Source: Mycolicibacterium smegmatis (lineage in GTDB: Bacteria > Actinomycetota > Actinomycetes > Mycobacteriales > Mycobacteriaceae). From it: a DNA stretch of 32,000 nt. The translations under genes were made by a program, and so were the position numbers. Positions 4,409-27,264 of the stretch are shown here, in pieces. The notes beneath the pieces were generated by a model. The model was not told the origin of the DNA, made no database searches, and saw nothing but the letters and a program-made list of their open reading frames with translations. The number at the start of each line of letters is the position of its first letter. Position 1 is the stretch's first letter. The stretch spans positions 4,080,001 to 4,112,000 of the forward strand of contig NZ_LN831039.1 of the NCBI RefSeq assembly GCF_001457595.1, read 5' to 3'.

Positions 4409-5308
4409 CTACCTTGGCCTCGCGACAATGATCGGTACGCGAACTTCCTGTGCAACCGCGGAACTCACCGAACCAAGCAGCATTCCGGTGAACCCGCCTC
4501 GGCCCCGGCTGCCCAGTACCACCAGCTGGGCACCTTCGGAGGCGGCGATCAGTGCGTCCGCCGGCCGGTCGAACTCGATCTCGAGGTTGACCGAGGTCTC
4601 GGGATACCGTTCCTCCCAGGCGCCCAGGCGCTCGGCAATGGGCTTTTGCACCACCGCTTGCAGTGCGGACCACTCGGCGGCGAAAAGCCCGGACATGTCA
4701 GCATCGACCAGCACGTGCAGCGCCACCACATCCACACCACGCAACGCGGCCTCCCGGAAGGCGATCTCCGTCGCGAACTCCGACGCCGGCGACCCGTCGG
4801 TGCCCAACAACACCGGAGACCGGCCCGATACTCGGGCAGCACCCGTTGCGTGGACGATCGCTACTGGGCAACGGGCATGGTGGAGCAACCCACTGGCGAC
4901 GGATCCCAACAATCGGCGGTGCTGCTCGTTGCGGCCGCGAGGACCGACGACGATCAGTTCGGCGGACCTGGAAAACCCGGTCAGGCTGGGCACGACACCG
5001 CCGTACAGCATCTCGCTGCGTACCTGTGGCCGAGAAGTGCCGGTGACGTCCTCCTGCACGATCTTGATCGCGTCGGCGATCGCAGTACGGGCGTCGTTGT
5101 CCTGAACCTCCAGGACTTCCTCGGGGATTCGACCGCCGGGCCACAACAGCGTCGAAGCGCTCAATGGTGTGACGACATGCGCAATCGTGAGGTCGACGCC
5201 TCGCAAGGTCGCCTCGGCCATGGCCCATCTGACCGCGGCCCGCGACCAGGACGATCCGTCGACCCCGACGACGATGCCGTGTGGCAGATCCGAATCCGCC
5301 ACACTCAC
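4409..5308 (-). CDS. Universal stress protein, tandem USP domains (Rv2005c/Rv2623 class)
   Basis: 299 aa with two USP domains. It has IVVGVDGSSWS...AVRWA and the C-terminal ATP motif GSRGRGGFTGMLLGSVSSAV (G-x2-G-x9-G-S). The GTG start overlaps the upstream gene's TGA stop (GTGA at 5305-5308). Confidence 0.9.
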   Translation of the reverse strand: MSVADSDLPHGIVVGVDGSSWSRAAVRWAMAEATLRGVDLTIAHVVTPLSASTLLWPGGRIPEEVLEVQDNDARTAIADAIKIVQEDVTGTSRPQVRSEMLYGGVVPSLTGFSRSAELIVVGPRGRNEQHRRLLGSVASGLLHHARCPVAIVHATGAARVSGRSPVLLGTDGSPASEFATEIAFREAALRGVDVVALHVLVDADMSGLFAAEWSALQAVVQKPIAERLGAWEERYPETSVNLEIEFDRPADALIAASEGAQLVVLGSRGRGGFTGMLLGSVSSAVAQEVRVPIIVARPR

Positions 5309-5775
5309 GCGGCGCTCGGCAGATCCGGCGCCGGTCCGCCGAACGTGCGTGCCGTGCGAGGCTCATTTGCCGGAGCCCAGCCGGCATACGTCAGGAACAG
5401 CCCCAGCAGGCCGACCGCGACCATGAGGACCTGCCACCACATCGCGGCCCGCACCATCGACTCGCCGAATGCCGCGTATGACTGTGGTACCGCCAGCAGT
5501 AGAACGCCTTTCAGCGTTGCAAGCCAACCGAGGACCGACACCACGATCGCTGCGACTCCATGCCACCTCTGGTGCAGCGCGACCACGGTGAGGCCGCTCA
5601 ACAGTACGAAGGCACCGGATACCCACGACATGATCGGGTTCTTTCCGAAATCGGTGACCAGGCCCGGTATCTCGGACGCACGTGCCAACGCCACGACAGC
5701 GACGACGACGAGATACGGGCCGAGTACACGTGCGAAGCCCTGCGTCCGGTTCTCGACGTGAAACGCAGTACTCAT
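5305..5775 (-). CDS. Hypothetical integral membrane protein (about 4 predicted TM helices)
   Basis: 156-aa ORF with four long hydrophobic stretches (e.g. GPYLVVVAVVALA, SWVSGAFVLLSGLTVVAL, AAIVVSVLGWLATLKGVLLLAV, WWQVLMVAVGLLGLFL). It is translationally coupled to the downstream USP gene, and DosR boxes lie upstream. I recognise no family. Confidence 0.65.
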   Translation of the reverse strand: MSTAFHVENRTQGFARVLGPYLVVVAVVALARASEIPGLVTDFGKNPIMSWVSGAFVLLSGLTVVALHQRWHGVAAIVVSVLGWLATLKGVLLLAVPQSYAAFGESMVRAAMWWQVLMVAVGLLGLFLTYAGWAPANEPRTARTFGGPAPDLPSAA

Positions 5776-5855
5776 GGCACTGAGACCTCCTCAAATCCAC
5801 GGACGTCACGACTGACGCCCGCCTGACCCATTCGACCACCGGTGCTTCGAGGTCG

Positions 5856-5875
5856 TAAGGGACCGAAGTCCACGT
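5856..5875. promoter_or_regulatory. DosR box TAAGGGACCGAAGTCCACGT (core GGGAC-CGAA-GTCCA)
   Basis: Lies in the 231-bp divergent intergenic region between the membrane-protein/USP operon (-) and the USP-like gene (+). It shares the 13-mer AGGGACCGAAGTC with the box at 17045. Confidence 0.7.
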
Positions 5876-5926
5876 TCAGATGGGCTTTTGTCGGTTCTGG
5901 GCAGCCAGAGGACCATCGGCGCAATC

Positions 5927-5946
5927 ACCGGGACTTAGGTCACCAT
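5927..5946. promoter_or_regulatory. DosR box ACCGGGACTTAGGTCACCAT (core GGGAC-TTAG-GTCAC)
   Basis: Lies in the same divergent region. The centre is 70.5 bp upstream of the ATG at 6007. Confidence 0.65.
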
Positions 5947-6006
5947 CGGCAGAGGTTCGCCGCCGATACGCTCGAACGCGCAGTTGATAAGCGGGTAGGA
6001 GCCGAG

Positions 6007-6798
6007 ATGTTGGAGCCAGAGAATTCCGCACCGATCGTAGTTGGTATCGACGGGTCCGAAGCGGGTGTACGGGCCGCTCGATGGGCGGCTGCCGAAGCCG
6101 AGTCCCGCAACGTTCCACTGCGTTTGGTGTATGCCACCAAGGCTTCACATCCATCGGCAGACGACTATTACGACGATGTCCGCCGCGGACAGGACGCCCT
6201 GTCGGCCGCCCAGATCGATGTGAACCGGCGCTACAGCGAGGTCAAGGTCGAGACCGCCCTGGTGGACGGGCCACCGGGGCGCGCGCTGATCGACGAGTCC
6301 GACCGTGCGGCGATGTTGTGTGTCGGATCGGTGGGCATCGGCCGCTACGCGGAATCGATTCTCGGGTCGATCGCCTTGGCGGTTGCCGAGGGCGCCGCGT
6401 GCCCGGTGGCTGTCATCCGTGCACAGGAGGATGACTCGGCGGTTCACTGGATCGCCGCTGGGAACCCGGCCGACGAACACGTCGTCGAATCAGCCATGGC
6501 CGAGGCGCGATTGCGGCAGGCACCGGTTCTGGTGCTCGGGGATCGACGCGAGGGCGACGCGTTCATCTACCAGGTCAAATCCATACAACTCCGCAATCCC
6601 GATCTCCACATCTACCCGATCACCGACAGAAACGATGTGGCCGGCTTTCTGAGGCGACACGACGAGCCGGTCCAGCTCGCCGTTATCGGTGAGTCGGAGG
6701 TCGCCGAACTCCCGCGCATCCTCGGCCCTCACGGGCGTCATATGTTCCACCTGTTCGAGGGGACCACGTCATCGGTGCTGGTGGCGCGCTATGACTGA
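6007..6798 (+). CDS. USP-family protein with a canonical N-terminal domain and a degenerate C-terminal domain
   Basis: I chose the internal ATG at 6007 (MLEPENSAPIVVGIDGSEAGVRAARWAA...) because the longer ORF from 5842 runs through both DosR boxes. Domain 1 keeps G-x2-G-x9-G-S (GSVGIGRYAESILGS). Domain 2 reads IGESEVAELPRILGP, so the second Gly is lost. Confidence 0.75.
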   Translation: MLEPENSAPIVVGIDGSEAGVRAARWAAAEAESRNVPLRLVYATKASHPSADDYYDDVRRGQDALSAAQIDVNRRYSEVKVETALVDGPPGRALIDESDRAAMLCVGSVGIGRYAESILGSIALAVAEGAACPVAVIRAQEDDSAVHWIAAGNPADEHVVESAMAEARLRQAPVLVLGDRREGDAFIYQVKSIQLRNPDLHIYPITDRNDVAGFLRRHDEPVQLAVIGESEVAELPRILGPHGRHMFHLFEGTTSSVLVARYD

Positions 6799-6893
6799 TC
6801 GCCGGATTCGTCGATGAAACCCTGTGACGCCGCCGGACATATGCGGGCCACCTCGTGAGCGGGGTGCCGATCGGCTGACAACTGACCGCGAGG

Positions 6894-6913
6894 GTCGGGA
6901 CTTTCGTCCCTAT
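6894..6913. promoter_or_regulatory. DosR box GTCGGGACTTTCGTCCCTAT (perfect half-sites GGGAC-TTTC-GTCCC)
   Basis: Lies in the intergenic region. The centre is 70.5 bp upstream of the ATG at 6974. It shares GACTTTCGTCCCTA with the box at 17139. Confidence 0.8.
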
Positions 6914-6973
6914 GGACCACCGGTGAATGCGCCGAGGATCACGGTGACGCGTCGATCGCACGGAGGGAACCAC

Positions 6974-7855
6974 ATGAGTCACAACGGAAACGGCGCTGGG
7001 TACGGCATGGTCGTCGCGGTCGACGGTTCGGCGGAGTCCGACGCGGCGGTGCGATGGGCGGCACGCGAGGCAACACTGCGCAAGATCCCGGTGACCGTGA
7101 TGCATGTAGTCGAACCGATGATCGTCAACTGGCCGGTCCCACCCGTGCAGGGCAGTGTCACCGAGTGGCAGGAGGCCAACGCCCGCAACGTGATCAAGCA
7201 CGCCCACGACACGTTCGTCGCCGTCGAGGAGTCCGCTCCAGACGGCATCCGGCACGAAATACGTTATGCCGGCATCGTTGCCGAACTTGTCGATGTGTCC
7301 AAGAACGCCACGATGATGGTGGTGGGGAGCCGCGGCCTGGGTGCGTTCGGCGGCGCGTTGCTGGGATCGGTCAGCAGCGGCGTCATCCACCATGCGCACT
7401 GTCCCGTTGCGGTGATCCACGGTGACCAGATACGTCGACCGGACCCCCGCTCCCCCGTGCTCGTCGGGATCGACGGATCACCCGCATCCGAGGACGCCAC
7501 GGCGTTCGCGTTCGACGAGGCCTCTCGTCGGCGCGTCGATCTCATCGCATTGCACGCCTGGAGCGACGTCGGGGTGTTCTCGGCGCTCGGCATGGACTGG
7601 CACGAGTACGAGGACCAGGGACGCGAACTGCTCGGTGAGCGTCTCGCCGGATGGCGTGAGCGGTATCCCGACGTGAGAGTGACTCGGCAGATCGTCTGCG
7701 ATCAGCCGGCACGGTGGCTCATCGACGGGTCACGCCACGCACAACTCGTCGTTGTGGGCAGCCATGGGCGCGCGGGATTCGCCGGAATGCTGTTGGGATC
7801 GGTCGGCTCGAAGGTCGCCCGCGCCGCCTATTCCCCGGTGATCGTGGTGCGTTGA
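6974..7855 (+). CDS. Universal stress protein, tandem USP domains
   Basis: ATG at 6974 preceded by GGAGGG (6963-6968). It has MVVAVDGSAESDAAVRWAAREA and both ATP motifs (GSRGLGAFGGALLGSVSS, GSHGRAGFAGMLLGSVGS). The longer ORF from 6824 crosses the DosR box. Confidence 0.9.
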   Translation: MSHNGNGAGYGMVVAVDGSAESDAAVRWAAREATLRKIPVTVMHVVEPMIVNWPVPPVQGSVTEWQEANARNVIKHAHDTFVAVEESAPDGIRHEIRYAGIVAELVDVSKNATMMVVGSRGLGAFGGALLGSVSSGVIHHAHCPVAVIHGDQIRRPDPRSPVLVGIDGSPASEDATAFAFDEASRRRVDLIALHAWSDVGVFSALGMDWHEYEDQGRELLGERLAGWRERYPDVRVTRQIVCDQPARWLIDGSRHAQLVVVGSHGRAGFAGMLLGSVGSKVARAAYSPVIVVR

Positions 7856-7871
7856 CAGCAGGTGTGGATGG

Positions 7872-9674
7872 TCAAGCCCCGCTCAGCGGGGCACTCCAGC
7901 GCACATGCGTCCCCGACCCGGCCGAGCTGGTGATCTGACAGCTGCCGCCGGCCTGTTGCGCCCGGGCTTTGAGGTTAGCCAACCCACTGCACCGCGCGGT
8001 GTTTGCCGGTATGCCTCGACCGTTGTCGACCACCTCGATATCGAGCCGATCCGATACCTCGATGGATATCGTCACGCTGGTCGCTCCGGAATGGCGCACC
8101 GCGTTGCTGATGGCTTCGACGATCACCGCTTCGGCATCGTCGGCCAGAGCGGGATCGACCGCGACGATGGGTCCGCTGATGCGTACGGTCGTCGCGAGGG
8201 GGCTGTTGTCGGTCACAGCCGCCACCGCCGCCTGAATCCGTTGCCGGAAACTCATGGCGGAAGCCGCGGGCGATTGCAGGTCGAAGATCGCCGTCCTGAT
8301 CTCGTCGATGATGGACTGCAGGTCGTCGACAGTGCGCGACAACCGCTCCTTGAGCAGATCGGACTTGGTGCGGGCGATGGTTCCTTGCAGGTCCATACCG
8401 GCCAGGAACAACCGCTGGATCACATGGTCGTGCAGATCCCTGGCGATGCGTTCCCGATCGCTCAACACGGTGAGTTGCCGTGCCTGCTCATTCGCCCGGC
8501 AGAGTGTGAGGGCCACGGCCGCGTGGTGCGCGAAATCCTCCATGATGGCCATCTCGTCCACGTCGAACGGCGGGTCGTCGGCGTCGCGGGCGACAGCGAT
8601 GACACCGAGGTTGTTGGTTGCCGAACGCAGTGGCACGACGATCGCGGGGCGGCGCCCCTGGTCGGTGAACGAAGTGATGGGGTATCTGAATCCATCCGTC
8701 ATCGTGGACTCCCCCGTGCGGAACACCCGTCCGCTCGTGGAGCCGGATACCGGCACCTGTTGCCCCTCGACCTCGTCGGCACGTGCGCCGGCGGCAACGG
8801 CAACCGTGAGGCTGCGAACCTCCTCCGGAGCCCGGTCCGCCTCGGACGGGACGAGTATGGCGGCCTGGCTCGCGACGGTGAGCTCCGCTGCCCGGCCGAC
8901 GATCAACCGCAGAGGGGCATCCTCTCCGCCGCTCATACCGAGCAAGGCCATGGTGATCTCACGGCTCGCGGAGACCCACCGCGCCACGGTGCGCACTTTG
9001 GCCAGATGCCACACACTGTGGACGACGTCCGCCGCCACCGTCGCGAGCACCTCGACAACCCCTACATGAGCGTCGGAGAACTCGAACCCGGCCCGGGAGT
9101 CGGCCACGTACAGACTGCCGAGCACTTCGCCGTGCGAGACGAGCGGCACGCCGAGCACAGCGCGCATCGGCGGGAGCAGCTCTGGCAGACCTACCTCGGC
9201 CGCAGATCGTGCAAGACCATCGATTCTGAGCGGACCTGTCCGATTGCGAAGAAACCCCAGCATGTCCCTGTCGGGCGAATCCGGGACCGCTTGCGCGAGG
9301 GCTCCTGCCTGCAGGAATGTCGCAGGTGTGCCGTTCGGGGCGCAGAGGCCGGCGGCACCGTAACAGGCACCTGATACCCGCATGATCGCGTCGAGAATGC
9401 CGTGCAGAGTGGACTCTGGTTCCAAACCGGCATCGAGCGAGGCCATGTCCTGCAACAACGCGGCCATCCGGACCTCGACCGCTTCGGGCGAGTCGTCCGT
9501 ATGCGACTGCCCCACGGGTCTACGCCAGGCCGGTCTCGCAACGATCGATCCAGTATCTCGAGCGCCCAAATCTGACCTCCACCCATCCTTCGACCTGGAC
9601 GCTACGCCTGTTGCGCATACCTGCAACCAAGAATTGACCGTGCCGTCAGCGCTCTCGAGGAACCGGTCCGCCAC
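7872..9674 (-). CDS. DevS/DosS/DosT-like sensor histidine kinase (GAF-GAF-HisKA_3-HATPase) lacking the proximal haem histidine
   Basis: It aligns without gaps to my recollection of Mtb DevS through PPMRAVLGVPL (DevS PPMRTFLGVPV), the H-box DRERIARDLHDHVIQRLF and the ATPase region (EAISNAVRHS, DNGRGIP, GLANLKARAQQAGG). The maximal ORF is given. Codons 1-50 have poor GC3, so the true start may be the ATG at 9467 (GAGG upstream) or the GTG at 9515. Confidence 0.85.
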   Translation of the reverse strand: MADRFLESADGTVNSWLQVCATGVASRSKDGWRSDLGARDTGSIVARPAWRRPVGQSHTDDSPEAVEVRMAALLQDMASLDAGLEPESTLHGILDAIMRVSGACYGAAGLCAPNGTPATFLQAGALAQAVPDSPDRDMLGFLRNRTGPLRIDGLARSAAEVGLPELLPPMRAVLGVPLVSHGEVLGSLYVADSRAGFEFSDAHVGVVEVLATVAADVVHSVWHLAKVRTVARWVSASREITMALLGMSGGEDAPLRLIVGRAAELTVASQAAILVPSEADRAPEEVRSLTVAVAAGARADEVEGQQVPVSGSTSGRVFRTGESTMTDGFRYPITSFTDQGRRPAIVVPLRSATNNLGVIAVARDADDPPFDVDEMAIMEDFAHHAAVALTLCRANEQARQLTVLSDRERIARDLHDHVIQRLFLAGMDLQGTIARTKSDLLKERLSRTVDDLQSIIDEIRTAIFDLQSPAASAMSFRQRIQAAVAAVTDNSPLATTVRISGPIVAVDPALADDAEAVIVEAISNAVRHSGATSVTISIEVSDRLDIEVVDNGRGIPANTARCSGLANLKARAQQAGGSCQITSSAGSGTHVRWSAPLSGA

Positions 9675-9737
9675 CGACCGGAATGGGTTCTTGCCAACGA
9701 AATCAACCGGGATTTGCCGGCCGCGCCGCTGACGAAT

Positions 9738-11234
9738 CTAGATCGCCAGACAGCAGACGCGCTGTGCTTCTGTCACCGACTCGCGCAGCGGTCGACTGGT
9801 GTCGATCGAATGTCCGTGAACGATGCCTGCGCCCTGTTCTGCGAGGGCGTCGGCGATCTCCGGGGTCGCGTCCGACGTCGTGCCCGATCTCGACGCGATG
9901 CGTTCACCGGCCGCCACCACCGGAAGCGAGCAGGTGAACTCCACCACAGGGACCGCGGTTTCAGATGCGAGGAGGTGGGCGCGCTGACGCCGGCCGACGT
10001 CGCGCCACGTCCCGTCGAGGATCACCGACCGGCCGTGCGTGAGCGCATGACGTGCCCGCGCGAGCACTTCGTCGTAGACCGCCGCAACGTTTTTCGGAGC
10101 GTAGAGACCGGTGTCGAGTTCTCCTGCCGCACCACCGATCACGCCACTTTCCTGCAGATACCGACGGACGTCGTCGGTCGAGATCACCACGGCGCCCAGT
10201 TCTTCGGCGAGGGCCCGTGAAACAGTCGTCTTGCCGGTGCCAGGACCACCACCGACGATGACCAGCTGAACTGTGGCCGCGCGCAGACGATCAAGGGCGA
10301 TGTCGATGTGGCGGCACGCATCGGTGGCCGCCTCCGGTCGACCTTGGCCGACACGTATGCACTCGACTTTCGCACGGACCACCGCGCGGTAGGCCACGTA
10401 GAAATCCATCAGAGACTGCGGAGCGGTGTCATGCGCGTGGTGCCGGTAGCGGTCGACGAAGAATGCGCTGAGCTCGGGTGACCCGAGAAACTCCAGATCC
10501 ATCGCCAGAAAAGCGGCGTCATCGACGCCGTCGACATAGCGGAGAGTGTCGTCGAACTCCAGACAGTCGAGAATGGCCGGTCCCTCCGGTGTGCAGAAGA
10601 TGTCGTCTGCGAGCAGATCGGCATGTCCGTCGACGATGCGGCCGTCCGCGATGCGCTCGGCGAACAGCTCGGCGCGGCCGGACAGGTACTGCGAAGCCAG
10701 CCGGCGCACTTCACTCAGCTGCTCCGGCGGCACCAGCGACATGCGGGCCAGCTCGGTCAGATTTTCGTCCCAGCGGGCCCACACCGAGGTCGCGCGTGCC
10801 TGATCGTCGATGACCGCCCCGCGTCCGGCGTCGCGGTGAAAGCGCGCAAGGATCTCGGCGATCACGTCGAGTTGGTCGTTCACCTCAGCCCCTCGCGTGA
10901 CCAAGGTCGACAGCCTGTCGGCATCCCGGTAGCGGCGCATGACCACCACGGGTTCGTCAGGGCGATCCCCCGGCCCGACAAGGTGCGCCACACCGAGATA
11001 ACTGTTGGGGGCCAGGCGGCTGTTGAGTTCTACCTCTCGAAGACATGCCGCCTCGCGCTGCTGCGCTGTGGTGAAATCCAGGAAATCCGTCCGGACCGGC
11101 TTCTTGGCCTTGTACGCGAGGTCACCGATCAGCGCCACGAGCCCCGTGTGCGTCTCACGGATCTGCGCATCGAGATTTCCGAACGCAAACACTCTGTCGC
11201 GCTGCGCAACCGCCGTTTCCGGCTTGTCCTCCAT
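9738..11234 (-). CDS. Rv2004c-like bifunctional protein: aminoglycoside-phosphotransferase-like kinase domain plus C-terminal P-loop (AAA/zeta-like) kinase domain
   Basis: I chose the ATG at 11234 (MEDKPETAV...), which gives 498 aa, because the longer ORF from 11345 runs into the DosR box. An APH-type region (DGHADLLADDIF) is followed by the Walker A motif GGGPGTGKTTVSRALAEE. Confidence 0.8.
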   Translation of the reverse strand: MEDKPETAVAQRDRVFAFGNLDAQIRETHTGLVALIGDLAYKAKKPVRTDFLDFTTAQQREAACLREVELNSRLAPNSYLGVAHLVGPGDRPDEPVVVMRRYRDADRLSTLVTRGAEVNDQLDVIAEILARFHRDAGRGAVIDDQARATSVWARWDENLTELARMSLVPPEQLSEVRRLASQYLSGRAELFAERIADGRIVDGHADLLADDIFCTPEGPAILDCLEFDDTLRYVDGVDDAAFLAMDLEFLGSPELSAFFVDRYRHHAHDTAPQSLMDFYVAYRAVVRAKVECIRVGQGRPEAATDACRHIDIALDRLRAATVQLVIVGGGPGTGKTTVSRALAEELGAVVISTDDVRRYLQESGVIGGAAGELDTGLYAPKNVAAVYDEVLARARHALTHGRSVILDGTWRDVGRRQRAHLLASETAVPVVEFTCSLPVVAAGERIASRSGTTSDATPEIADALAEQGAGIVHGHSIDTSRPLRESVTEAQRVCCLAI

Positions 11235-11288
11235 GCTTGCATGGTGCCGCGTTCCGCGATCGTCCCGCCAGGGTCCTACGGCCCCCGG

Positions 11289-11308
11289 TTGAGGACCATA
11301 GTCCCTGT
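11289..11308. promoter_or_regulatory. DosR box TTGAGGACCATAGTCCCTGT (core AGGAC-CATA-GTCCC) shared by divergent genes
   Basis: This is the only box in the 132-bp divergent gap. The centre is 64.5 bp from the ATG at 11234 (-) and 68.5 bp from the ATG at 11367 (+). Confidence 0.65.
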
Positions 11309-11366
11309 TGATCTTGTTCTGGCACCGCCAGGCTGACAGGAGCACACGACACCGGGGACACGGAAC

Positions 11367-12356
11367 ATGAGAGATGCTCAGCCATCAGTCGACGTGATCG
11401 GTGACGCGCTGCGGTTGACGTGCCGAGCGCCCTCGCTGCACAACAGTCAACCGTGGCTGTGGGCCGCGGTCGACAAAACTCTTCACCTGTTCGTCGACAA
11501 ACAGCGCATCCTTTACTCCGCGGACCACATGGGCCGGGAGGCCGTGATCGGTTGTGGCGCGATGCTCGATCATTTCTGCGTCGCGATGGCCGCCGACGGC
11601 TGGGTGCCCAAGGTCGCCAGGCTGACTGATCGCGGCGATCCGCTGCACCTCGCGTCGATCGAATTCCCCGAGATCCGGCTGTTCCCGCGAGAGCACCGCC
11701 GACGACGTGCCGCCGCCATCAGCCGCCGCCGCACCGACCGACTACCGTTTGCCGAGCCTGCCGACTGGCCCACATTGGAAGTGCAGCTGCGCAAGTCGAT
11801 CGCCTTCGACACCGTAGGGTTCGACGTCGTGCCCGATCACGCACGACCCGAGCTGGCGTATGCCTCACGGCTCACCGAGTCCCTCCGCCAGTACGATTCG
11901 TCCTATCACGCCGAACTATATTGGTGGACAGGACAATTCGAGTCTATCGACGGAATACCCTACAGCGCTCTGGTCTCGGCCTCCGAATCGGAGCGGGTCG
12001 GCGTCGGCAGACGCTTCCCCAACCCCCGCACCGGTGACAGATGCGCCGGACCTGGCCACGATCAGGCAAAGGTCGTGGTGTTGTCCACGCTCGAGAACGA
12101 CCGCACGAGCATCTTGAACTGTGGCGAAGCGCTCTCGGCGGTCCTGCTGGACGCCACGGTCGCGGGAATGGCGACGTGCACGTTGACCCACATCACCGAG
12201 TTGGCCACGAGCAGAGACATCGTGGCTCGTCTGATCGGCCAGGAGGCCACTCCTCAGGTCTTGATCCGCGTCGGGGTGGCCACACGCGATGACGACGCCC
12301 CGGCCACCCCACGACGTCCGCTCGAAGAGTTTTTCACAGGGAGATCCCCATGGTGA
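11367..12356 (+). CDS. Acg-family nitroreductase-like protein (Rv2032/Rv3131/Rv3127 class), copy 1
   Basis: 329 aa with [23 protein letters not shown] and a C-terminal LIRVG...TPRRPLEEF block. All three are shared with the paralogues at 18540 and 24354. Confidence 0.85.
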
Positions 12357-13003
12357 CAGTCTTTCTCGTCGATGATCACGAACTCGTCCGGCGTGGCCTG
12401 ATCGACCTCGTCCGGTCCGATCCCGATCTGGATGTGATCGGCGAGGCAGGCTCGGTGTCCGAGGCGATGGCGCGGATACCCGCGTTGCGACCCGAAGTCG
12501 CGGTTCTCGACGTCCGGCTGCCCGACGGCAACGGGATCGAGCTGTGTCGCGACCTGTTGTCGCGACTGCCCGATCTGCGTTGTCTGATGCTCACCTCCTT
12601 CACGTCCGACGAGGCCACGCTCGACGCAATCCTCGCCGGTGCCAGCGGTTTCGTCATCAAGGACATCAAGGGCATGGACCTCACCCATGCCATCAAAGAG
12701 GTGGCAGCCGGACACTCCCTGCTGGACAACCGCGCCGCAGCCGCCCTGATGAAGAGACTTCGCGAGACAGCCTCACACTCCGACCCTCTCACCGGTCTGA
12801 GCGATCAGGAGCGCATGCTGCTGGAACTGCTGGGCGAAGGACTGACCAACAAGCAGATCGCCGAACGCATGTTCCTGGCGGAACGCACCGTCAAGAACTA
12901 CGTGTCACGCCTGCTGGCGAAACTCGGGATGGAGCGCCGCACGCAGGCGGCCGTGTTCATCTCCAAGCTGGACCACGGCCGCCACCACGACGAGCAATAC
13001 TGA
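12350..13003 (+). CDS. devR: DosR/DevR response regulator (NarL/LuxR family)
   Basis: 217 aa, near-collinear with my recollection of Mtb DosR: [91 protein letters not shown]. The ATG overlaps the nitroreductase stop (ATGGTGA), and AGGGAGA is a plausible SD. Confidence 0.95.
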
Positions 13004-13004
13004 C

Positions 13005-13895
13005 TCAGCCGCGGACCACCACAACCGGCCGTTCTGCGGCCTCTGCCACGCTGGTACTCACCGACCCGAGCAGCAGTCCGGCGAATCCACCGCGACCGTG
13101 GCTTCCGACAACGGTCAGCTGCGCGATCTCCGAGCGTTTCAACAACCTACGGTCGGGACGGTCGAGGACGACCTCGCGTCGCACGTGGACATCGGGATAC
13201 CGTTCCTGCCATCCCGCGAGACGCTCGGACAGACTCTCCTCGGCCTGCACCCGCAGATCGTCCCAACGCACTCCTGGGTAGCCGGCCACGTTGGCGTCGC
13301 TCCACGCGTGCACCGCCAACAGTGGCGCGCCTCGTCGAGAGGCTGCGTCGAACGCGAACTCCAGCGCCTTCTCCGAGGCCGGTGAACCGTCGACACCCAC
13401 GACGACCGGTGCCGTGGTCGCAATGGCAGAGGCCTTCGACTCGCCGTGGATCACCGCGACCGGACAGCGCGCATGCCGGATGAGACCCGCAGTGACCGAA
13501 CCCAAGAGTCTCCGGCCGATGGGCCCCAACCCGCGGCACCCGACGACGAGGAGCCGCGAGGACTCGGACAGTTCTGTCAGCGCGGCAACGACACTGCCTG
13601 CCACCACGACGTCGTCGACGTGGATCTCGACTGCTCCGCCGACCACGTCCTCGGCGACCTTGCGGGCCTCTTTGAGCAGTTGCTCGGCGTTGCGTTTGAG
13701 CTGATCCGCCAACGTGGTGGGCGCGGGGATCTCGGACCACGTCGCGCTACCGGGCGGCCACTGCATGACATGCACGATCCGCAGGGGAACCTTGTGCAGC
13801 ACGGCCTCCTTCGCCGCCCACTCCACCGCCGCTGTCGACGGTTCTGAACCATCCACGCCAACCAGAACGCCACGTGTGCCGGCTGAAGACGTCAT
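13005..13895 (-). CDS. Universal stress protein, tandem USP domains
   Basis: It has VLVGVDGSEPSTAAVEWAAKEA plus GCRGLGPIGRRLLGSVTA and GSHGRGGFAGLLLGSVST. The ATG at 13895 forms an ATGA overlap with the upstream Rv1733c-like stop. An alternative ATG lies at 13907. Confidence 0.9.
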   Translation of the reverse strand: MTSSAGTRGVLVGVDGSEPSTAAVEWAAKEAVLHKVPLRIVHVMQWPPGSATWSEIPAPTTLADQLKRNAEQLLKEARKVAEDVVGGAVEIHVDDVVVAGSVVAALTELSESSRLLVVGCRGLGPIGRRLLGSVTAGLIRHARCPVAVIHGESKASAIATTAPVVVGVDGSPASEKALEFAFDAASRRGAPLLAVHAWSDANVAGYPGVRWDDLRVQAEESLSERLAGWQERYPDVHVRREVVLDRPDRRLLKRSEIAQLTVVGSHGRGGFAGLLLGSVSTSVAEAAERPVVVVRG

Positions 13896-14482
13896 TGCAT
13901 TCCCCATTCTCGTTTTCCTGCGATGATCTCGAATTCACGTTCCCATTCGGCGTAGCGAGCCCGGTCGAACCTCCGGTGCAGCAAGATCAGCCCGCCGCCG
14001 ACGCCGGCTGCGAAGAGAATCCATGCCCACAGCGCCGTGAGAACCGCGTCGCCGACGGCGCGACCCTCACCGTGCGGAGGATCGATGACCTTGCCTGAGG
14101 GGTTGACCCAGATGGTCTGTTCGTCACCGACATTCGGAAAATCCGCCCATACGAGACGCCCGCGGTGTTGCTGTCCGTCGACAGTCCAGGTCGCGTCCGC
14201 CCGGTACGGCTGGGCGTGGCCCTCTGTGTTGACCAGCGCACCTCGTTCGGCCGCGACGGCAATCACCTGGCGTGCGTCGCGGGCCTGTGCGGCGTAGACC
14301 TGTTCACGGTCGTGATACACCGAGATCCCGATCGACGCCGTCAGCGGTATCGCCAGAACACACAACACCACGGCCGCGAGCCGCAACGCCCCTTCGATGC
14401 GGTCACGACGGCGCACCAGTGGGTTTCGGCTCCACACCACGGACCCCAACCACTCACCGACACCCAAGGTGAAAGTTTCCAT
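13892..14482 (-). CDS. Rv1733c-like conserved transmembrane protein
   Basis: ATG at 14482 (METFTLGV...) preceded by GAGGAA. WSRNPLVRRRDRIEGALRLAAVVL resembles Rv1733c FSRNPLVRGTDRLEAVVMLLAV. It has two TM helices flanking a soluble loop. The longer ORF from 14614 crosses the promoter. Confidence 0.75.
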   Translation of the reverse strand: METFTLGVGEWLGSVVWSRNPLVRRRDRIEGALRLAAVVLCVLAIPLTASIGISVYHDREQVYAAQARDARQVIAVAAERGALVNTEGHAQPYRADATWTVDGQQHRGRLVWADFPNVGDEQTIWVNPSGKVIDPPHGEGRAVGDAVLTALWAWILFAAGVGGGLILLHRRFDRARYAEWEREFEIIAGKREWGMQ

Positions 14483-25680: not shown

Positions 25681-27264
25681 TTACTGCATGCCAGGCCCGT
25701 GCGCATCCGGTGGTGGCCGGTCACGCTGGGCGAGGTACGCCTCATTGCGGGCGCGTTCGGCGGCGAGCCGCCGCGCTTCTTCCGCCGCGCGCGTGCGTCG
25801 GCGCCGCGGCATCATCGCCGCGCGGGCCGCTATCTCCGACGGCGTCATCGGCGGTGGCGGTGTCGGTGGGGGCGGCAGCGCGGCGGTCGTGGTGTCCCAC
25901 TGCGGGAACAACGCGCGGCTGGCGGGAACCGTCGTATAGACATGCCCGGTCGGGCTGGTCCAGATCACCGTGCCGTCAGGGAGCTGCCGGTCCGACCAGC
26001 CGAGCCAGAACGTCTTGAGCAAGTGATGAATTCGGCATAGGCATTTGGTGTTCGACGGATGCGTCACGCCCGTCGGCCACGGCGTGGTGTGGTCGACGTC
26101 GCAGAAATCCGCCGGGCGCGAGCATCCCGGAAACCGACATGTCATATCCCGCATCCGCACGAAGCAATCCATGGCCACCGAGGGACGGTACGAGGCGCAG
26201 ATGTCATCGGGCACGGTGAGTTCTTTGACCTTGGCGCCATCGGCGATCAACTGCGCCACCAGCGGTGCGGGCACCACCCCGCCCCCGAGGACCACCGCAC
26301 CACCACGGCCGGGATGCGCCGATTGTGGCGTCCAGGGTTTGGGTTCTGGTTCAGGCGGTTTGCGAACCGGCTCGGGCGTGGGCTCCGGCTCCGGCGTTGG
26401 CGTCGGCTCGAAGTAGGGAATCGGGTTGGACTCGTGGTCGCCGTCCAGGTACCGGTCGACCGGGCCGTGTACCGCCGCCGGTTCGGCGAAGACATGAACC
26501 ATGGTGTTGGCCGCCCGCGGGTCGATCCCCGCCGCAGGGCATTCGGGATCACCGCACCGACAAGTCAGCCGATCCCCGTAGTGACCCAGCACTCCCATGG
26601 CGTCCGAGAGTCGCTGCCCCTTGGTGCGTGGATCGTCGGGGCATTGCCCAGACGACATTGCCCCGACACGGTTTTTCAACGCGACAGCATCAACGTTCGT
26701 CAACCGCGCGTGAACCGAGGTGATACCCGTCTCGTCATCGGGATGGCCAAACCACACACCCCGAGACCGCACGGCCGTCCGGGTGCGACGCACCGCCGCC
26801 GGATCCACGCTGTCGACCACCTTGTCGACGGCCCCCTCCAACTCGGCGATGGTCATGGCGCCGAACTCGGCGATGCGGGATGCCAACTGAGCATCGACTG
26901 CCGCCATCGTCTGCGTGTCGTCGATCAGGCGCGTGCGCCAGGTCAGCGTCTCGACCACCCGCGTGCTCACCGCGCCCTCGGCGAACTGTGCCGCCACCAA
27001 CGGCAACCGGTCGCGCAACGCCACCGCGATTCGCATCAGTCTCGACGCCGACCGCTGCCCGATGTTCAGCGCGGCCGCCACCTCGGCTGACGCGGCATCC
27101 CAGTCATCACACGCCCACCACACGACCGTGTCTTCGGAATCAGCCGTGCGCCGGTCGACGAACTCTGCGATGAACGCGAACCGCCGCGCCGCGGCGGCCG
27201 ACTCCGCGCGCGACTCCCCCGCGATTCCGGCAATCAAGGCCGCGTCGTCAAGGGTTTCGCACAT
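25681..27264 (-). CDS. DUF222 / HNH endonuclease-domain protein (mycobacterial REP13E12-like family)
   Basis: 527 aa. It has the HNH core CRFPGCSRPADFCDVDHTTPWPTGVTHPSNTKCLCRIHHLLKT, an N-terminal DUF222-like region, and a Pro/Glu-rich linker EPTPTPEPEPTPEPVRKPPEPEPKP. Confidence 0.85.
   Translation of the reverse strand: MCETLDDAALIAGIAGESRAESAAAARRFAFIAEFVDRRTADSEDTVVWWACDDWDAASAEVAAALNIGQRSASRLMRIAVALRDRLPLVAAQFAEGAVSTRVVETLTWRTRLIDDTQTMAAVDAQLASRIAEFGAMTIAELEGAVDKVVDSVDPAAVRRTRTAVRSRGVWFGHPDDETGITSVHARLTNVDAVALKNRVGAMSSGQCPDDPRTKGQRLSDAMGVLGHYGDRLTCRCGDPECPAAGIDPRAANTMVHVFAEPAAVHGPVDRYLDGDHESNPIPYFEPTPTPEPEPTPEPVRKPPEPEPKPWTPQSAHPGRGGAVVLGGGVVPAPLVAQLIADGAKVKELTVPDDICASYRPSVAMDCFVRMRDMTCRFPGCSRPADFCDVDHTTPWPTGVTHPSNTKCLCRIHHLLKTFWLGWSDRQLPDGTVIWTSPTGHVYTTVPASRALFPQWDTTTAALPPPPTPPPPMTPSEIAARAAMMPRRRRTRAAEEARRLAAERARNEAYLAQRDRPPPDAHGPGMQ

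Follow-up and report, generated by a model that had tools for sequence, protein, structure and literature searches.

Leucine at the proximal haem-ligand position of the second DevS-type kinase of Mycolicibacterium smegmatis

The closest described relatives of the kinase treated here, MSMEG_3941 (DevS2/DosS2) of Mycolicibacterium smegmatis, are DevS/DosS (Rv3132c) and DosT (Rv2027c) of Mycobacterium tuberculosis and MSMEG_5241 (DevS1) of M. smegmatis itself, with which it shares the same domain order. The gene was studied in a stretch of 32,000 nucleotides (contig NZ_LN831039.1 of NCBI RefSeq assembly GCF_001457595.1, positions 4,080,001 to 4,112,000 of the forward strand), called the window below. 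M. tuberculosis DosS loses its His-ligated haem spectrum as the H149A variant, M. smegmatis DevS binds no haem and has no autokinase activity as the H150A variant, and a construct of the latter protein made of GAF-B and the kinase part is constitutively active under all conditions (PMC4082495). The DevS genes of M. smegmatis are MSMEG_5241 and MSMEG_3941 and its DevR genes MSMEG_5244 and MSMEG_3944 (PMC5638771). Mutants in MSMEG_5241 or MSMEG_5244 fail to induce hspX in hypoxia (PMC5638771; PMC13486717), therefore DevS2 and its partner DevR2 (MSMEG_3944) do not substitute for the first pair. M. smegmatis is the standard surrogate for DosR dormancy studies, and the second DevS/DevR pair is usually dismissed as inactive, since it gives no support for hypoxic hspX induction.

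In the window DevS2 is the open reading frame 7872-9674 on the minus strand (600 codons counted from the first GTG). The encoded protein matches the "two component sensor histidine kinase DevS" of M. smegmatis mc2 155 at 100% identity, and the frame was assigned to MSMEG_3941 because a second DevR adjoins it. The protein carries leucine where DosS, DosT and DevS1 carry the proximal histidine, and it is read here, with a probability of about 0.6 for the reading as a whole, as a haem-blind bifunctional kinase/phosphatase whose output would be set by expression and whose default state would be biased towards the phosphatase. The parts of this reading differ in strength. Canonical haem ligation is very probably missing, it is held with still higher confidence that the protein has kept a function, and the phosphatase-biased default, proposed by analogy, is tentative.

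Pfam and PDB matches give the order GAF-A, GAF-B, HisKA_3 (the dimerisation and histidine phosphotransfer domain, DHp) and HATPase_c, which is the layout of DevS/DosS/DosT; Pfam itself finds two GAF stretches, HisKA_3 at residues 407-469 and HATPase_c at residues 512-597. The ratio of nonsynonymous to synonymous rates (omega, dN/dS) was calculated by the Nei-Gojobori method on codon alignments of six lineages of the orthologue clade described below. The domains are as follows.

9009..9437, minus strand: GAF-A, residues 80-222, a homologue of the GAF-A that binds haem in DosS/DosT (phmmer to 2vzw and 2w3d; AlphaFold2/Foldseek)
8490..8924, minus strand: GAF-B, residues 251-395, strongly conserved, omega about 0.13-0.15 in most pairs
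8265..8489, minus strand: DHp/HisKA_3, residues 396-470, with the phospho-accepting His415 at 8430-8432 in DLHDHVIQ
7881..8264, minus strand: catalytic ATP-binding domain (CA), residues 471-598, with N and G boxes and a match to the DevS structure 3zxo (E = 2e-32)

An earlier note on this DNA, made by a model from the letters without database searches, had described the kinase core as intact, and this is borne out: the protein has the H-box (DLHDHVIQ with His415), the N box (EAISNAVRH) and the G1 box (DNGRGIP), and in GAF-B, DHp and CA omega lies at about 0.1-0.16. The H-box stretch, DLH(415)DHVIQ, contains the HDxxxQ phosphatase motif. With this motif and its N and G boxes MSMEG_3941 has the features of bifunctional HisKA_3 histidine kinases of the NarX-DesK type. 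The role of the DxxxQ motif in phosphatase activity is familiar from studies of NarX and DevS.

The start of the gene (9465-9674, minus strand) varies among public records, which give proteins of 600, 565, 547 and 531 amino acids. The TTG at 9569 (565 amino acids) is the start preferred here from the sequence, with GGAGG 6 nt upstream and a resulting length that resembles canonical DevS. The form of 531 amino acids is probably too short because orthologue translations stay similar upstream of Met70. The GAF-B domain (residues 255-406) matches the solved GAF-B of MSMEG_5241 (2vjw/2vks) weakly (E = 5e-10), and many DevS-like kinases from other mycobacteria show 47-51% overall identity to MSMEG_3941; DevS2 therefore seems to belong to another DevS subfamily and to be no recent duplicate of MSMEG_5241.

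The proximal ligand position and the GAF-A pocket

The ligand position was located by phmmer against all PDB chains. The segment GLPELLPPMRAVLGVPL of MSMEG_3941 aligns ungapped with GFPLHHPPMRTFLGVPV of DosT (2vzw) and with GFPPYHPPMRTFLGVPV of DosS (2w3d, 2y8h, 2y79, 4ynr), and these haem-bound GAF-A structures place Leu167, and no histidine, at the ligand position. The central claim of the earlier note, that the equivalent of His149 is leucine, is thus upheld by profile alignment. The same applies to its details: the reverse complement of the plus strand at 9174-9176 reads CTC, the preceding residue is also a leucine (Leu166), and the histidine of VSHGEV (His181) lies off the ligand position, being aligned with DosS Arg163 in a column where 99% of the canonical homologues have Arg. 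The positions of the pocket on which the argument depends are listed here, the clade being that of the DevS2 orthologues.

9174..9176, minus strand: codon CTC of Leu167, at the proximal-His position (DosS His149, DosT His147, M. smegmatis DevS His150); CAC in the M. goodii orthologues
9162..9191, minus strand: motif GLPELLPPMR, a degenerate version of the haem-ligand motif GFPxxHPPMR
9108..9110, minus strand: Tyr189, equivalent of the distal Tyr171 of DosS and Tyr169 of DosT; kept in mc2 155, Phe in the His-bearing variant P0128
9270..9272, minus strand: Asp135, at the position of DosS Gly117 (haem-channel Gly); Gly in 109/109 canonical homologues, Asp in all clade members
9342..9344, minus strand: Cys111, at the position of DosS His89 and DosT Arg87 in the distal signalling loop; clade-invariant, with Arg, Trp or Leu in canonical proteins

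Leucine at this position is a rare and true exception. In a MAFFT alignment of the 120 closest full-length homologues the ligand column is His in 112, and among the 147 nearest GAF domains, taken from representatives at 50% identity, it is His in 125, mostly within GFPxxHPPM; the non-His matches among these 147 are mostly giant multi-GAF proteins unrelated to DevS. A sequencing error or strain artefact was considered as the source of Leu167 and rejected, as one Leu form is present on 572 contigs. A full-text literature search turned up one paper that names MSMEG_3941 and no description of its missing histidine, although a mention in older DevS papers is possible.

As a set, the conserved pocket and channel residues of DevS/DosS/DosT are not preserved. 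Tyr189 in GSLYVAD aligns with DosS Tyr171, in agreement with what had been claimed for the distal tyrosine, the Phe98 equivalent is retained as Phe120, and Gly109 occupies the position of DosS Glu87, as in DosT. The equivalent of the Leu114 gate is Ser133, Asp137 stands at the position of DosS Gly119 (Asp or Glu across the clade), the equivalents of the conserved DosS His139 and Arg163 are altered clade-wide, and the C-terminal helix of GAF-A is remodelled across the clade (E204V, A213V, A217V, A221V). A column was counted as conserved at 90% or more across 109 canonical homologues. MSMEG_3941 departs at 24 of the 54 such columns of GAF-A, versus 4 of 46 (GAF-B), 1 of 36 (DHp) and 2 of 36 (CA), and the clade members each differ at 24-27 of the 54 GAF-A columns. 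For the channel glycine it has been reported that G117L, predicted to block the haem channel, renders recombinant DosS resistant to HC106A (10.1101/411793). An AlphaFold2 model of residues 70-235, built on an alignment of 52 sequences, has the GAF fold with its usual order of N-terminal helices, five beta strands and a long C-terminal helix (mean predicted local distance difference test score, pLDDT, 79.3; predicted template modelling score, pTM, 0.75), and the top 17 Foldseek hits of this model in the PDB are all haem-bound GAF-A domains of DosT/DosS, with template modelling (TM) scores of 0.61-0.76 and root mean square deviations of 3.5-4.9 Å.

It could be supposed that haem nevertheless sits in the pocket through hydrophobic contacts, with His181, Cys111 or water as its axial ligand, and that gas or redox sensing goes on in a changed form. 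The retained GAF fold, the presence of distal Tyr189 and Phe120 and a clade-invariant cysteine on the distal side favour such an arrangement, but both H149A in M. tuberculosis DosS and H150A in M. smegmatis DevS abolish stable haem binding (PMC4082495), the channel Gly has become Asp and the Leu114 gate Ser, the His139 and Arg163 equivalents are changed, relatives delete the entire proximal loop, and the His181 column, so uniformly Arg in canonical proteins, is His, Asp or Asn in the clade. Haem binding of this kind is judged very improbable.

Orthologues and repeated loss of the ligand

Orthologous loci were recovered by exact-protein look-ups and show the following at the ligand position.

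M. goodii: 89% identity; GLPELHPPMR, codon CAC
M. goodii X7B: 75% identity; His, codon CAC
Assembly SRR32308991: 73% identity; Asp, codon GAC
Two further assemblies: 70-71% identity; a 16-residue deletion across the entire ligand loop

Most records labelled M. smegmatis carry leucine at the ligand position. A strain variant with the same label (P0128/P0125) has His167 together with Phe at the distal-Tyr position (Tyr189Phe), and 23 of its 43 differences from mc2 155 are located in GAF-A. In a neighbour-joining tree of GAF-B and the kinase domains the eight clade proteins are monophyletic and the outgroups bear His, hence the proximal histidine was lost on three independent occasions within the clade: to Leu, to Asp and by deletion. 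The Leu codon CTC is one A>T transversion away from CAC, and the leucine of M. smegmatis is this one recent nucleotide change. The GAF-A pocket had diverged before the clade split into its present lineages, whereas the histidine went late, in a step that could be repeated.

The earlier note had asked for a survey of whether the His-to-Leu variant forms a conserved clade. It does not, and this candidate was rejected: the nearest syntenic orthologues carry His, Asp or a deletion, and the leucine is a single change within M. smegmatis, while M. goodii keeps CAC. The DevS2 clade as such is small, amounting to a single cluster at 50% identity (P0003) in an exhaustive search of representatives with GAF-A; a large haem-less family was not found in that search. 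A word-indexed protein search with GAF-A alone matched only two fragments of 91 amino acids.

Selection on the two halves of the protein and its probable output

Within the clade omega is 0.25-0.52 in GAF-A (median 0.39) and about 0.14 in GAF-B, DHp and CA taken together, where values range from 0.01 to 0.28 at synonymous divergence (dS) of up to about 0.9. Dividing dN in GAF-A by dN elsewhere in the protein yields a median of 3.30, with values from 2.06 to 4.73. As a control, canonical DevS loci of other mycobacteria that keep the His (17 loci, 136 pairs, from homologues at 50% identity or less) were treated in the same way and gave a median of 0.90 and a maximum of 1.45, so that the haem domain of a normal DevS is, on these substitution counts, at least as conserved as the kinase. 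The GAF-A of the clade is by this measure under relaxed constraint as a whole domain, and only 29% of its positions are clade-invariant, where the other domains reach 66-87%. The DevR2 proteins of the clade share 93-97% identity, and their omega is 0.03-0.07 at dS up to 0.88. These values indicate strong purifying selection on GAF-B, DHp, the ATPase domain and DevR2.

The earlier note had also seen more A/T-ending codons in GAF-A than in neighbouring genes. This stands only marginally: the GC content at third codon positions (GC3) of the region it named is 0.733, compared with 0.775 in the whole gene and 0.69-0.80 in the neighbouring genes. Codons 81-180 have GC3 of 0.66 against 0.817 in the rest of the gene (Fisher p = 0.001, for a window picked post hoc), which fits a GAF-A that evolves faster and under less constraint. 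Horizontal transfer as the origin of GAF-A is not supported, given the GC3 of the island, 0.69-0.80, and a local dip that is modest and lies in that post hoc window.

It has to be asked whether the DevS2/DevR2 pair is simply a functionless relic, that is, a duplicate on its way to becoming a pseudogene in which the loss of the histidine is neutral decay. Published work calls MSMEG_3941/3944 non-functional for hypoxic induction (PMC5638771; PMC13486717), and GAF-A is decaying with a slightly lower GC3; against this, no stops or frameshifts were found in DevS2 of the six lineages, omega stays near 0.14 outside GAF-A and below 1 inside it, the low values in GAF-B, DHp, CA and DevR2 persist at considerable dS, synteny is conserved and the catalytic motifs are intact. 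A relic is hardly credible on this record. MSMEG_3944 has likewise been called functionally inactive or irrelevant in recent papers (PMC13486717, PMC5638771); selection argues that DevR2 is in use, and the published tests covered just hypoxic induction of the hspX type.

A second possibility is that GAF-A has been re-purposed and reads, alone or with other parts, a non-haem signal such as a thiol redox switch or a small ligand. An omega of 0.25-0.52 is not 1, GAF-A and the residues just upstream of it hold 15 of the 38 signature residues that are invariant in the clade, and the strict conservation of DevR2 and the kinase core implies a real input to the module. Among the signature residues are three cysteines that canonical homologues do not have there, and 3 Cys among 38 signature positions correspond to p of about 0.006 at a 1% Cys background.

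9342-9344, minus strand: Cys111, in the distal signalling loop; canonical residues Arg/Trp/Leu
8499-8501, minus strand: Cys392, at the GAF-B/DHp junction; canonical residues Ala/Ser
7989-7991, minus strand: Cys562, in the ATPase domain; canonical residues Arg/His

The three cysteines could be a thiol switch or a coincidence. On the other side, the pocket lid is shorter by 16 residues in two clade members and others vary at the ligand position, which speaks against a single conserved ligand site there, and few GAF-A positions are invariant in comparison with the other domains. Re-purposing is thus unlikely, and its most specific form, in which the clade has exchanged haem gas sensing for another input with a Cys111/Cys392/Cys562 redox switch as the top candidate, is slightly more doubtful than that. 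If it were true, DevS2-DevR2 would give the dormancy network of mycobacteria an undescribed, haem-independent second input instead of being a dead duplicate.

The favoured reading, that of a haem-blind kinase/phosphatase, can be put together as follows. DevS2 would be the histidine kinase of a second, synteny-conserved DevS2-DevR2 module in a DosR-regulon island of M. smegmatis and its close relatives, and its ancestor would have been an ordinary haem-GAF DevS. In the clade GAF-A would have ceased to be constrained as a haem pocket, with the channel Gly changed to Asp and many invariant pocket and loop residues replaced, after which the proximal histidine was lost repeatedly, in M. smegmatis via CAC>CTC to Leu167. 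DevS2 is most likely without His-ligated haem and blind to O2, NO and CO, because the pocket is remodelled and the proximal histidine lost. It would still be used as a bifunctional kinase/phosphatase because the transmitter half and DevR2 are under strong purifying selection. Its output would then be set by the amount made and not by gas binding, since the island carries DosR boxes and is presumably induced by DevS1/DevR1. By analogy with haem-free H150A DevS, resting DevS2 may be low in kinase and competent in phosphatase activity, and it would mainly buffer or reset phosphorylated DevR2 (DevR2~P), possibly also DevR1~P. The sequence, its alignment, the synteny and the pattern of selection are established, and from them we infer the absence of haem, the enzymatic activity, the direction of the bias and the regulatory logic.

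The direction of the bias is where a constitutive kinase comes into question. In that case the divergent apo-GAF-A would no longer inhibit, DevR2 would be phosphorylated whenever DevS2 is expressed, and the module would form a feed-forward arm of the DosR response, gated by transcription. M. smegmatis DevS reduced to GAF-B and the kinase, a construct active in all conditions (PMC4082495), is the model for it, the clade-wide remodelling of the GAF-A C-terminal helix and the DosR-box-like sites in the island agree with it, and dosR2 is expressed, its hypoxic expression being PrrAB-dependent (PMC6898941). Haem-free full-length H150A DevS, however, has no autokinase activity (PMC4082495), and hspX induction in the devS mutant is not rescued by DevS2 (PMC5638771), which partner specificity or non-expression could also explain. 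A constitutive kinase is considered somewhat unlikely.

Several points weigh against the haem-blind kinase/phosphatase. The omega of GAF-A is well below 1 and the domain holds clade-invariant signature residues, therefore it has kept some role, perhaps in sensing. In mc2 155 both Tyr189 and the equivalent of Phe98 are kept. The H150A analogy may transfer poorly, given the remodelled C-terminal helix of GAF-A. There is no DosR box directly upstream of DevS2 and a weak hairpin lies between DevS2 and the upstream gene, because of which co-regulation of DevS2 with the island is an assumption. Finally, the published "non-functional" label is a narrow one, resting on hypoxic induction of the hspX type.

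The DosR-type island and comparison with known systems

The earlier note had placed the kinase in a DosR island with a DevR encoded at 12350, and a DevR paralogue with DosR-type neighbours is indeed found there; by genomic context and synteny DevS2 pairs with this DevR/DosR. The neighbouring elements are the following.

12350..13003, plus strand: DevR2/DosR2 (MSMEG_3944), NarL-type response regulator; syntenic with DevS2 in every orthologous locus with enough flank
11367..12356, plus strand: Acg-family (Rv3131-like) FMN oxidoreductase, whose 3' end overlaps the devR2 start by 7 nt
9738..11345, minus strand: AAA_33/Zeta-toxin-domain gene, directly upstream of DevS2 on the same strand
9704-9723, minus strand: weak terminator-like hairpin after the AAA_33 stop and before DevS2, followed by ATTTCGTT
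11292..11305, plus strand: DosR-box-like palindrome AGGACCATAGTCCC, within the 5' end of the 535-codon frame 9738-11345; the acg-devR2 start at 11367 follows 62 nt downstream
5859, 5930, 6897, 11292, 14569, 17048, 17142 and 25416: DosR-box-like sites, several of them close to where USP, acg, tgs and Rv1733c-like genes begin

The 7-nt overlap (12350-12356) suggests an acg-devR2 operon with translational coupling, unlike the Rv3134c-devR-devS arrangement of M. tuberculosis. The AAA_33 gene and DevS2 may be co-transcribed, to judge from their layout. Two terminator-like sites were found in the region versus 1.1 in shuffles, which is no excess, and a promoter scan upstream of MSMEG_3941 found nothing. 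Palindromes resembling the DosR box (GGGACTNNAGTCCC, up to 2 mismatches) number 8 in the window versus 1.4 expected, none of the 8 being directly upstream of the DevS2 gene; the one at 11292..11305 sits upstream of the shorter AAA_33 start (about 498 amino acids) called in orthologues. Expression of dosR2, with PrrAB dependence in hypoxia, has been documented (PMC6898941).

The island comprises four universal stress protein (USP) genes within 4409-13907, the AAA_33 gene, the Acg-family gene and the DevR paralogue, and further holds WS/DGAT genes, a PfkB gene and more nitroreductase-family and USP genes; the M. goodii counterpart of the gene at 13892-14614 matches Pfam Rv1733c. Locus ERZ24910832 (4484-5524) lacks the acg gene and has a DDE_3 transposase gene between devR2 and the USP gene; its lineage is one whose DevS2 has the 16-residue GAF-A deletion. 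A DUF222-family frame of 527 amino acids (25681-27264, minus strand) stands among the stress genes of the window. The DUF222 family is often tied to HNH-endonuclease or mobile-element proteins in actinobacteria.

The absence of the proximal histidine together with the remodelled pocket explains in concrete molecular terms the failure of DevS2 to stand in for DevS1 in sensing O2/NO. Strong purifying selection on both the kinase core and DevR2 shows that the module is in use for some function, which qualifies the label "functionally inactive". It can be said that DevS2 is a natural case of sensor-domain decay with the transmitter retained, and with three independent ligand losses in a handful of lineages the clade is a tractable system for the study of how two-component kinases change or lose their inputs.

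In comparison with DevS, DosS and DosT, DevS2 has the same distal Tyr, H-box His and HDxxxQ, its ATPase domain finds its match in DevS 3zxo (E = 2e-32) and its GAF-A is closest to the DosT/DosS haem domains both by sequence and by predicted fold. Like DevS it adjoins a DevR-type regulator among DosR-regulon genes (USPs, Acg nitroreductases, Rv2004c-like, Rv1733c-like and Tgs-like genes). It is unlike these kinases in having Leu for the proximal His, Asp for Gly117, Cys for His89, Ser for Leu114 and changed residues for His139 and Arg163, and in a GAF-A that evolves about 3.3 times as fast as the rest of the protein, versus about 0.9 times in canonical DevS. The gene is arranged divergently to devR2 and not co-transcribed with it, unlike DevS/DosS, and it is unable to replace MSMEG_5241 in the hypoxic induction of hspX (PMC5638771). 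The nearest parallels are the laboratory variants H149A of M. tuberculosis DosS and H150A of M. smegmatis DevS, in which the same position was made a non-coordinating aliphatic residue as in DevS2; the change in DevS2 is natural, fixed in most M. smegmatis strains and accompanied by many other GAF-A changes, which may have altered the coupling of GAF-A to the kinase. Accessory or degenerate-sensor kinases of the RetS-on-GacS type (PMC12757749), which work by phosphatase or partner activity, resemble it in concept only, through an altered input/output logic and a possible modulation of a related pathway, and DevS2 keeps all of its catalytic motifs.

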